From the NCBI GenBank assembly GCA_036676965.1, contig JAKFBW010000055.1, positions 3,567-67,566 of the forward strand: a stretch of 64,000 nucleotides of DNA, given 5' to 3'. This document shows, piece after piece, positions 15,538-16,033 of this stretch. How positions within the stretch are numbered: the stretch's first letter is position 1; each line of letters starts with the position of its first letter. The position numbers and the translations under genes are program-made. The stretch is from Flavobacterium sp. (GTDB lineage Bacteria > Bacteroidota > Bacteroidia > Flavobacteriales > Flavobacteriaceae). Below the pieces are notes generated by a model. The model ran no database searches, was not told where the DNA came from, and worked only from the letters and a program-made list of their open reading frames with translations.

Positions 15538-15590
15538 ATTAGTCCTTAGTACATAGTCCTTAGTTTAGGTACTAAGAACTAATCATCTAA
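15538..15590. repeat. 7-bp-periodic inverted array upstream of the four-helix-bundle gene
   Basis: TTAGTCCTTAGTACATAGTCCTTAG ... ACTAAGAACTAA. Confidence 0.75.
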
Positions 15591-15603
15591 AAATTAAAAA
15601 ATT

Positions 15604-15969
15604 ATGAGTGGAGTTAAATCATACAAAGAATTACTTATTTGGCAAAAAGGTATCAAGATTGTGGTTTTAATATATAAACTCACGAGGAGCTTTCCTAAAG
15701 AAGAAATTTATGCTTTAACAAGTCAATTAAAAAGAGCCAGTGTCTCAGTTCCTTCAAATATTGCCGAAGGATTTGGACGTCAAAAAGATAAATCATTTAA
15801 TCATTTTTTGAATATTTCCAGAGGTTCATTAAACGAAATAGAAACACAATTAATTATCGCAAAAGAATTGGAATTTATCTTAGATATGGATTTGTTCAAT
15901 GAAATTATGTTTTTAATAGAAGAAGAAGGTAAAATGATAAATGCTTTTTCAAAAAACTTGAAAGACTAA
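15604..15969 (+). CDS. Four-helix-bundle protein (23S rRNA IVS-like / Avd-related fold)
   Basis: YKELLIWQK, FPKEEIYALTSQLKRASVSVPSNIAEG, F..FLNISRGSLNEIETQL. Confidence 0.93.
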   Translation: MSGVKSYKELLIWQKGIKIVVLIYKLTRSFPKEEIYALTSQLKRASVSVPSNIAEGFGRQKDKSFNHFLNISRGSLNEIETQLIIAKELEFILDMDLFNEIMFLIEEEGKMINAFSKNLKD

Positions 15970-15973
15970 AACG

Positions 15974-16033
15974 GAGTCCTTAAATATTTAGAACTAATTA
16001 CCATTATCACTAAGGACTAACAACTAAGTACTA
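15974..16033. repeat. 7-bp-periodic inverted array downstream of the four-helix-bundle gene
   Basis: GAGTCCTT ... GAACTAA ... CACTAAGGACTAACAACTAAGTACTAA. Confidence 0.72.

Follow-up and report, generated by a model that had tools for sequence, protein, structure and literature searches.

A four-helix-bundle gene between inverted heptamer arms in the gmk-nadD spacer of Flavobacterium: a probable intervening-sequence-type cassette outside rRNA

Why does a gene of a protein family named after intervening sequences (IVSs) of 23S rRNA lie between gmk and nadD, two protein-coding genes of a Flavobacterium, and why is it flanked on both sides by copies of one heptamer? The locus lies at 15538-16033 of a 64,000-nucleotide stretch of contig JAKFBW010000055.1, hereafter the window, which has a G+C content of 37% and whose nearest Gmk proteins (95-96% identical) are found in Flavobacterium genomes. 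We conclude that the feature is probably an IVS-type cassette located outside rRNA, composed of a PF05635 gene and inverted heptamer arms and seated in the gmk-nadD spacer. The cassette is dispensable and lineage-variable, and the same gene-plus-arms layout surrounds most of the sampled family members, in cyanobacteria, Riemerella and an Azospirillum 23S rRNA IVS. Its parts in the window are the following.

15538..15583, + strand: left arm, with TAGTCCTTAG perfect at 15540-15549 and 15554-15563 and a degenerate inverted copy at 15572-15581
15584-15603, + strand: A-rich leader between the left arm and the four-helix-bundle (4HB) gene
15604..15969, + strand: 4HB cargo gene, 121 aa, PF05635/TIGR02436, "S23p" or 23S rRNA IVS protein family
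15975..16035, + strand: right arm, with inverted copies CTAAGGACTA and CTAAGTACTA at 16010-16019 and 16024-16033
15539..16034, + strand: predicted long-range stem closing the cassette, 15539-15564 paired with 16009-16034

The gene, its arms and their predicted fold

The first-pass annotation of this DNA placed a 121-aa four-helix-bundle gene between gmk and nadD, and both the open reading frame (ORF) at 15604-15969(+) and the profile matches of its product agree with that assignment. The protein covers PF05635 from end to end (profile 1-106/106; E 3e-37, 127.5 bits against a cutoff of 33.8) and passes TIGR02436 (E 8e-37, 125.8 bits, cutoff 24) as well as NF008911 (144.7 bits, cutoff 137). Its closest solved relative is the pentameric XCC0516 (PDB 2GSC; E 5.5e-22), from which a four-helix-bundle fold is predicted by homology. 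The family motif core R-x3-S-x3-N-x2-E is present within KRASVSVPSNIAEG, and a motif of this type is common to 15/15 aligned family members; a conserved GxxRxxxSxxxNxxE-type motif has been reported before (Lin 2006 and Zhang 2013, cited from PMC3936711). For intact copies of the gene, the ratio of nonsynonymous to synonymous divergence (dN/dS) is 0.076 in one allelic class (class A, see below) and 0.061 in the other (class B), at a dS of ~ 1. The protein is thus under strong purifying selection wherever its gene is intact.

The same annotation had traced the family to 23S rRNA IVSs and related it to Avd, and profile matches and literature show this background to be correct. Avd (bAvd, PDB 4DWL) has a homologous four-helix-bundle fold, is pentameric like the XCC0516 homopentamer, and itself has a role in binding nucleic acid and reverse transcriptase (RT). 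The gene might accordingly be taken for the remnant of a diversity-generating retroelement, an orphan Avd left without its RT and without template and variable repeats, as weak matches to the bAvd model PF22296 (31.2 bits) and the Avd equivalog NF033474 (23.3 bits) would allow. Both scores stay under their cutoffs (40 and 80 bits), while those of PF05635 and TIGR02436 are easily passed. No RT adjoins the 4HB gene at ~ 40 related loci or in the window, where the scan covered its neighbours yicC, gmk, nadD and an Fe-alcohol dehydrogenase gene, and the flanking repeats are 7-nt tandem arrays rather than a template/variable repeat pair. With Avd models below cutoff and neither RT nor such repeats adjacent, this origin is effectively refuted, and we give it hardly any probability.

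The arms of the cassette can be folded in two ways. The first-pass annotation described a complete hairpin on each side of the gene, which holds for the left flank, where the local hairpin is significant (-14.9 kcal/mol, z -4.09), and fails for the right flank, where the local fold is no better than that of shuffled sequences (8-bp stem, 28-nt loop, z -1.0, 29/200). The right arm holds, besides its inverted copies, one forward copy (15975-15981) and a degenerate one (~ 15988-15997), and the nadD ATG follows 1-3 nt after its end. In the minimum free energy structure of the whole 501-nt stretch, 22 pairs join 15539-15564 to 16009-16034 and enclose the ORF, and ~ 27 left-right pairs are expected over the ensemble. 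The duplex of left and right arm reaches -30.3 kcal/mol, compared with -11.4 +/- 3.2 for shuffles that keep mononucleotide composition only. One split hairpin with the 4HB gene in its loop is hence the better-supported predicted structure than two local hairpins, and the picture of a gene between two complete hairpins gives way to that of a gene inside one. The predicted fold thereby displays a trait of IVSs, terminal inverted repeats that form an ORF-enclosing stem.

We also considered two independent terminator hairpins around the 4HB gene and rejected them, given the z of -1.0 for the right flank and the lack of any terminator or promoter signal in the spacers. Consensus promoter and terminator scans returned sites no more numerous than in shuffles, none of them within the spacers. 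The two-terminator arrangement is ruled out by relatives as well, in which each flank carries arrays of a single orientation.

Alleles of the gmk-nadD site across Flavobacterium

We compared 80 Flavobacterium loci around gmk, with counts given for 78 species. The gmk-nadD spacer is 5-174 bp long and gene-less in ~ 59/78 species and carries the 4HB gene in ~ 19/78; one further locus (L050) has an unrelated 3-kb insert at this place. Filled sites come in two classes. In class A, the 4HB protein is 81-91% identical to that of the window and the arrays are always of the TAGTCCT type; in class B, it is 70-76% identical and the arrays are always of the TAGT(A/G)A(T/A/C) type (TAGTRAT arms). Canonical filled sites have only forward arrays in the left flank and only inverted arrays in the right flank, and the gene therefore lies in the loop of one split hairpin. 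Arm-arm complementarity is found in 19/19 cassettes tested (z -2.6 to -9.9), and in every allele the right arm lies directly against the nadD ATG. A jackhmmer search for other 4HB paralogues in the window or the 80 loci found none outside gmk-nadD.

Filled and empty states are scattered on the tree. When a neighbour-joining tree is built from the flanking YicC, Gmk and NadD, Fitch parsimony requires 16 changes for 18 filled taxa, where permutation gives a mean of 17.3, and the distribution of the cassette in Flavobacterium is without phylogenetic signal. The first-pass annotation had stated that a gene fixed between gmk and nadD across the genus would speak against a mobile unit; with ~ 59 of 78 species empty, ~ 19 filled and no phylogenetic signal, the gene is not fixed there. 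The alternation is seen even among the close relatives L028 (class A), L030 (empty), L023 (class B) and L039 (empty), in which the whole spacer is replaced. Between L028 and L030, homology is lost ~ 10 nt short of the gmk stop and returns at the start of nadD, so that the whole spacer constitutes the variable unit. No target-site duplication is seen at the filled/empty junctions, and no transposase or REP-associated tyrosine transposase (RAYT) gene was identified.

In two metagenome runs (X5 and X8), a co-occurring relative joins 15508 to 16034, a nearly spacer-less empty allele. An excision product of the window strain was considered as the source of this joint and rejected, as the contigs derive from the relative, which is ~ 91% identical.

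Evidence of movement comes from pairs of loci in which cassette and flanks disagree. Between L084 and L085-L088, and between L081 and L084, identity is 99-100% over the 4HB gene, the preceding 30 nt and the right arm, compared with ~ 82% for gmk and ~ 85-90% for nadD. On the left, the step in identity falls inside the array, whose copy number differs. The class B cassettes of L023 and L069 show a like pattern. Judged from these identities, gene and arms have been exchanged together, horizontally, between Flavobacterium species, and the sporadic distribution with horizontal transfer that marks IVSs is found in the gmk-nadD cassette too. A scan of viral contigs for a phage vector returned no relative.

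Cassettes also decay. The 4HB gene is frameshifted in L063 and L066 and truncated in L057, where the 5' half is lost. In L031 (4568-5375), the arms keep their normal orientation and the gene between them is inverted and frameshifted, an arrangement expected from recombination between inverted arms. Altogether, five of ~ 19 cassette copies are decayed or inverted. With regard to expression, one metatranscriptome contig from a relative covers the 3' end of gmk together with the left arm and the 4HB gene, indicating that in relatives the gene is transcribed and probably read through from gmk.

The first-pass annotation had further read the gene-less TAGTCCT hairpins of the window as the empty counterparts of the filled site. 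This reading is not supported: all of ~ 40 inspected contexts of the window's 4HB clade are gmk-nadD, and the true empty sites carry other heptamers. Since all inspected close class A relatives lie at gmk-nadD, the cassette is faithful to one site within the genus. The gene-less copies themselves stand in part. Those reported at 14893 and 21700 are significant hairpins, and the array reported at 9715 has no significant fold. They are listed here together with the genes around the cassette.

14027-14887, + strand: yicC, upstream of gmk
14888..14965, + strand: gene-less TAGTCCT hairpin in the yicC-gmk spacer, forward array 14893-14918 and inverted array 14928-14955 (-33.3 kcal/mol, z -5.67)
14966..15535, + strand: gmk (guanylate kinase), host gene, upstream boundary of the insertion site
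16037..16618, + strand: nadD (nicotinate-nucleotide adenylyltransferase family), host gene, downstream boundary of the insertion site
16690-17853, + strand: Fe-alcohol dehydrogenase gene, downstream of nadD
21687..21772, no strand assigned: gene-less TAGTCCT hairpin between two minus-strand genes (-32 kcal/mol, z -5.97)
9714..9796, no strand assigned: TAGTCCT array, three forward copies at 9714-9745 and one inverted copy at 9787-9796 (z -0.42)

The Fe-alcohol dehydrogenase gene directly follows nadD in the window (71 nt, 16619-16689); in L081-L090 and many of L001-L080, mostly 1.7-2.4 kb with a LysR-type regulator gene and a DJ-1/PfpI gene lie between the two.

Heptamers and 4HB genes beyond Flavobacterium

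If the arms belong to the gene, they should accompany it elsewhere. A tblastn search against plasmid records returned 32 records, of which 14, chosen by similarity and belonging to three phyla, were examined. Inverted period-7 arrays stand on both sides of the 4HB gene in at least 10 of these 14 members. The contexts and arms (left / right) are as follows.

L103, Geminocystis: plasmid, between an AAA ATPase gene and parB; AAGGGAA / TTCCCTT
L104, Riemerella: between an Fe-S assembly gene and the next gene; GGTTCAA / TTGAACC
L107, Nostoc edaphicum: between the ribonucleotide reductase (RNR) beta and alpha genes; TAGGGAG x8 / CTCCCTA x5
L108, Nostoc C052: adjoins a type IV secretion system (T4SS) coupling-protein gene; GGGAACA / TGTTCCC x7
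L110, Anabaena 90: between cas6 and cas4; CAGGTGA / TCACCTG
L112, Picosynechococcus: between cas10 and cmr3; GGAGATA type
L113, Calothrix: after a phage-integrase gene; GGGTGTA / TACACCC
L106, Stanieria: between a hypothetical gene and a transposase gene; GCAGAGG type
L101 and L102, Nostoc 7120: regions rich in insertion sequences (IS) on two plasmids; GCAGAGG type, right arm only, with an IS in place of the left arm
L114, Azospirillum: inside a 23S rRNA gene (Rfam LSU); GAGGACG / CGTCCTC

A stringent lag-7 detector, applied to 40.6 kb of plasmid loci, places 15/20 arrays within 150 nt of a 4HB gene, a zone that makes up 10% of the sequence, and the remaining 5/20 all lie in L109. The same 40.6 kb yielded no array with a period of 5, 6, 8 or 9.

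The heptamers themselves follow the proteins. The 4HB proteins of L101 and L106 share 79% of their amino acids at a proportion of synonymous differences of 0.86 (saturated), and both loci carry CCTCTGC / CTTCTGC. At 72% amino acid identity and a dS above 3, L108 and L103 have GGGAACA and GGGAAAA / GGGAAGA, and at the same identity, with synonymous sites saturated, L105 and L109 have the TTAGCTG and AAAGCTA families. Classes A and B of Flavobacterium (71% amino acid identity, dS ~ 1.6) differ as TAGTCCT and TAGTAAT, and TAGTCCT is kept within class A at dS ~ 1.2. For proteins less than 50% identical, the heptamers are unrelated. In these comparisons, heptamer type tracks protein clade even where synonymous sites are saturated. 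The conservation of the 7-mer itself at such divergence, beyond what complementarity of the arms would demand, argues for a sequence-specific constraint. The check proposed in the first-pass annotation, that 4HB paralogues should each come with their own heptamer type, yields an association, clade by clade, and the gene-plus-arms layout of most of the 14 sampled members suggests a link between the S23p family and bacterial heptamer repeats.

Two sets of cyanobacterial loci bear on how the arms change and move. The right-arm TGTTCCC array has ~ 5, 10 and 14 copies in the near-identical Nostoc contigs L115, L116 and L120, and arrays therefore expand and contract quickly. 4HB proteins 84% identical to each other are encoded on a Nostoc plasmid and on the Limnoraphis chromosome, in both cases with GGGAACA/TGTTCCC arms; the adjoining gene codes for a T4SS coupling protein in Nostoc and for a glycosyltransferase in Limnoraphis. 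The presence of the same clade with the same arms at unrelated sites means that gene and arms relocate together. [quoted passage not shown] A mobile unit of 4HB gene and arms, which the first-pass annotation had put forward as a candidate, is supported both by these unrelated sites of the GGGAACA clade and by the 99-100% identical cassettes next to gmk genes of 82% identity.

A number of observations weigh against this reading of the locus. Three of the sampled members depart from the layout: the arrays of L109 are direct instead of inverted, L111 has a left arm only, and L105 has a single array ~ 120 nt upstream of the gene, lacking an inverted partner. Recombination may have scrambled the very flank-gene tree on which no phylogenetic signal is seen. 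In Flavobacterium, cassettes of classes A and B were found at gmk-nadD only, and their spread within the genus could come from homologous recombination in the flanks together with loss, with no self-mobility. Heptamer hairpins far outnumber 4HB genes in the genome and are common there without one, and genes other than 4HB are also found in hairpin loops (L061, L078, and the window ORFs 22891-23265 and 45486-46133). The S23p protein of Coxiella is thought not to be made (PMC4990558).

Several further points of this kind are what would be expected of an ordinary accessory gene in a hypervariable spacer, where heptamer hairpins are generic (elements of mRNA processing or stability, or products of slippage) and have no functional tie to the gene, and where patchiness reflects deletion and allele exchange through gmk/nadD recombination. 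Nearly every empty gmk-nadD spacer is itself a tandem-heptamer hairpin, of other sequences such as AAAGATT, TTTTAGG, CACAAAG, GTTATGN, TCTAAAA and more (~ 50 species). Such hairpins also occupy many other spacers of the window and the yicC-gmk spacers of relatives. In the window, the bracketing by these hairpins is stronger for gmk than for the 4HB gene (z -7.3 vs -4.7), for which reason bracketing there is by itself no mark of the 4HB gene; what sets that gene apart is the comparison across species. The cassette's stay at one site and the replacement of whole spacers would equally follow from flank recombination, and gene-less inverted heptamer pairs are known from Xanthomonas (PMC4692102). 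Generic hairpins would not, however, explain the crowding of period-7 arrays beside 4HB genes in cyanobacterial plasmid loci, nor the agreement of heptamer type with protein clade across orders in spite of saturated synonymous sites. Gene and arms moreover recur together at unrelated sites and inside 23S rRNA, and the steps in identity sit at the arms rather than at variable positions in the flanking genes. We consider an accessory gene of this sort unlikely.

The 4HB protein could also be the active maker of the arrays, propagating them with a polymerase, RT or recombinase encoded elsewhere, so that gene-less hairpins of the same type are products or landing pads. Several features of the heptamer distribution invite this thought. 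AGTCCTT occurs 22 times in the window against 6.5 +/- 2.8 expected, a count reached by 0/100 shuffles, and TAGTCCTTAG with at most one mismatch 21 times against 2.2 expected. All five TAGTCCT-type tandem or inverted clusters (9714-9796, 14893-14955, 15540-15582, 15975-16033 and 21699-21765) fall at 9.7-21.8 kb, within 12 kb of the cassette; likewise, AAAGCTA arrays fill several spacers around the 4HB gene of L109. The yicC-gmk spacer shares the heptamer type of the cassette in 4/7 class A loci as opposed to 4/59 empty ones (Fisher p 0.003; p 0.036 for class B), array copy number changes fast, and the homologue Avd works with an RT. These clustering statistics are post hoc, with no correction for phylogeny or for the joint transfer of larger segments. 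Genomes without the cassette, namely those of four species with an empty gmk-nadD site, still have TAGTCCT hairpins, and outside the spacer (8.5-kb loci) class A shows only a weak excess of TAGTCCT, driven by two loci. Neighbouring genes at 12.3-19.1 kb include no RT or recombinase, and the cassette is never seen inside another TAGTCCT hairpin. There are weak hints of a local spread of arrays from the cassette; active propagation by the protein seems to us quite improbable.

Domestication offers another explanation, by which the protein, the stem or both tune gmk/nadD expression, for instance by occluding the nadD start region. The position of the right arm at the nadD ATG in all alleles and the purifying selection on the protein would fit, and a regulatory role has been proposed for heptamers close to start codons in Beggiatoaceae and Nostoc (PMC4679880; bioRxiv 2022.06.06.494920). 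About three quarters of the species nevertheless do without the cassette, five of ~ 19 copies are decayed or inverted, and a function confined to gmk/nadD fits poorly with a family that also occurs in rRNA and in unrelated operons (cas, RNR, suf, T4SS). A domesticated regulator is very unlikely.

The probable IVS-type cassette among known systems, and other hairpin cargo

The IVS-type cassette, which we regard as the probable reading of the locus, resembles its rRNA namesake closely. IVSs of 23S rRNA with an S23p ORF are known from Leptospira, Coxiella burnetii, Brucella and Xanthomonas (Ralph & McClelland 1993; Warrier et al. 2016, PMC4990558). In the C. burnetii IVS, which lies in helix 45, RNase III cuts a 28-bp stem formed by terminal inverted repeats, the S23p ORF occupies the loop, and tandem GACAGAT heptamers number 2-3 depending on the strain; this IVS has been called a selfish element, and earlier proposals of mobility, and of horizontal transfer in Leptospira, are cited in the same work (PMC4990558). 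Protein family, an ORF in the loop of long terminal inverted repeats, heptamers in the arm, sporadic and horizontal spread and ORF decay are all common to these elements and the gmk-nadD cassette, and the Azospirillum IVS (L114) has heptamer arms (GAGGACG/CGTCCTC), as Coxiella has GACAGAT. In contrast to them, the cassette sits in the spacer of an mRNA operon and not in helix 25 or 45 of 23S rRNA. RNase III excision, demonstrated for 23S IVSs, would here be by analogy, and the Coxiella ORF is thought to be untranslated, whereas the gmk-nadD protein is under strong purifying selection. The gmk-nadD element shares every tested IVS feature except rRNA location. An Rfam scan of the window identified no rRNA and no known RNA family for the hairpins, only two Flavo-1 RNAs (RF01705) elsewhere, at 42434-42532 (+) and 51806-51899 (-), with 64.3 and 59.8 bits at a gathering score of 42.

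We hypothesize the following course of events. The cassette would be co-transcribed with gmk and nadD, as suggested by spacers of 67-68 nt, the lack of promoter or terminator signals and the metatranscriptome contig. Its arms could then pair as a double-stranded RNA stem of ~ 20-40 bp that is cut by RNase III as in 23S rRNA IVSs, releasing the cassette RNA and leaving the flanking cistrons usable. Such a cut would make insertion into an operon spacer or an rRNA helix tolerable. The 4HB protein, presumably pentamer-forming, may recognise its cognate heptamer repeats as RNA or DNA, and this proposed recognition would account for the conservation of heptamer identity beyond pairing needs. Slippage would expand and contract the arrays, and the recombinogenic inverted arms would give rise to inversion and allele replacement.

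Intergenic tandem heptamers have a history of their own. They were reportedly described in cyanobacteria, as short tandemly repeated repetitive (STRR) sequences, by Mazel and colleagues in 1990. GGGAATC occurs in gene-less inverted pairs in Xanthomonas and GGGGAYT in tandem in Nostoc (PMC4692102), and TAACTGA repeats are found in Beggiatoaceae, cyanobacteria and Bacteroidetes (PMC4679880). The arrays described here are like these in their period of 7, their location in spacers, their frequent occurrence as convergent stem-loop pairs, their variable copy number and their lineage-specific sequence. This description fits the gene-less hairpins at 14888-14965 and 21687-21772, which are convergent pairs of tandem 7-nt repeats as in STRR or the Xanthomonas GGGAATC type. 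What differs at gmk-nadD is that the arrays form two arms around a PF05635 gene and that their sequence follows the protein clade. The terms "S23" and "four helix" do not occur in PMC4692102, nor "intervening" and "helix bundle" in PMC4679880. Our literature search, which was incomplete so that a prior description may exist, found nothing that links the S23p family to flanking heptamer arrays outside the Coxiella IVS.

Other comparisons are less close. With MITEs and REPINs (hairpin-forming doublets of repetitive extragenic palindromes), the cassette shares terminal inverted repeats, an intergenic location and gene-less derivatives in the same genome; its arms, however, are tandem heptamers rather than unique terminal inverted repeats, and its cargo is a 4HB protein with no known catalytic motif. 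Genes labelled 23S_rRNA_IVP have been read as CRISPR-associated (Zhang et al. 2013, PMC3936711; terascale clustering, PMC10910872). They belong to the same family, and we find such genes in cas6-cas4 (type I-D) and cas10-cmr3 (type III-B) on the cyanobacterial plasmids L109, L110 and L112. The examined cas-locus 4HB genes lie inside heptamer arms (between direct arrays in L109), as does the gmk-nadD gene, which suggests interlopers in operon spacers and not dedicated components of the cas systems.

A wider generalization, which we offer tentatively as possible but doubtful, can be drawn from the sequence comparisons. PF05635 proteins might be sequence-specific binders of tandem heptamers, each clade with its cognate 7-mer, and protein and arrays together might form a widespread, unrecognised class of cassettes that colonise hairpin loops (operon spacers, cas loci, plasmid operons and 23S rRNA helices) in Bacteroidota, Cyanobacteriota and Proteobacteria. 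Under this scheme, Flavobacterium and Xanthomonas hairpins without a gene, like the STRR sequences, would be solo arms or targets in trans, and the 23S IVS a special case that happened to be noticed first. Such a scheme could provide a shared explanation for the function of the S23p (Avd-like) family, for the origin and role of tandem heptamers (STRR, GGGAATC, TAACTGA) and for 4HB genes in cas and other operons. Should gene and arms form a single unit with cognate recognition, the function of the family becomes directly testable, and if the scheme is true, "CRISPR-associated 23S_rRNA_IVP" annotations need rereading as operon interlopers. The gmk-nadD site, with three allelic states among very close relatives, is a natural system for following gain, loss and replacement.

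Hairpins with other cargo were seen as well. At 22799-23320 of the window, a 124-aa ORF (22891-23265, minus strand) with no Pfam or NCBIfam match has AAGTTAG arrays at 22827-22858 and 23255-23283 with inverted copies, and its flanks are complementary (z -4.3); the locus may be a second cassette with different cargo. At 45410-46243, a 215-aa ORF (45486-46133, +) with no family match has ATAGAGG-type arrays at 45425-45450 and an inverted counterpart at 46183-46221, with a weak z of -2.0. The yicC-gmk spacer of L061 and L078 holds a ~ 128-aa lipoprotein-like gene exactly in the loop of an AAGCTTT hairpin that is intact and gene-less in the related L080, L058 and L022, a direct filled/empty pair with non-4HB cargo. 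This spacer is an insertion hotspot (L003, L008, L009, L021, L023, L027, L029, L039, L051, L063, L065, L085 and L086), its inserts being unrelated genes of 500-1000 bp (secreted or lipoprotein-like ORFs and a DUF1016/YhcG nuclease-like gene), mostly devoid of heptamer arms.

Other repeat families are present in the window. A G+C-rich palindromic repeat of the CCCTCTCCAAAGGAGAGGG type occupies at least three sites (1230-1340, 31250-31300 and 32253-32353); two copies of it flank a 287-aa gene at 31389-32252, with a flank complementarity of z -5.9, and the motif fills the yicC-gmk spacer of L011, L017 and L032. Further repeat-hairpin families at 19160-19215, 19700-19750, 21210-21262, 28525-28602 and 43073-43187 comprise CGCAGATT hairpins followed by T-runs, which gives them a terminator-like appearance, and GCAGTCG/TTTTCAG arrays.

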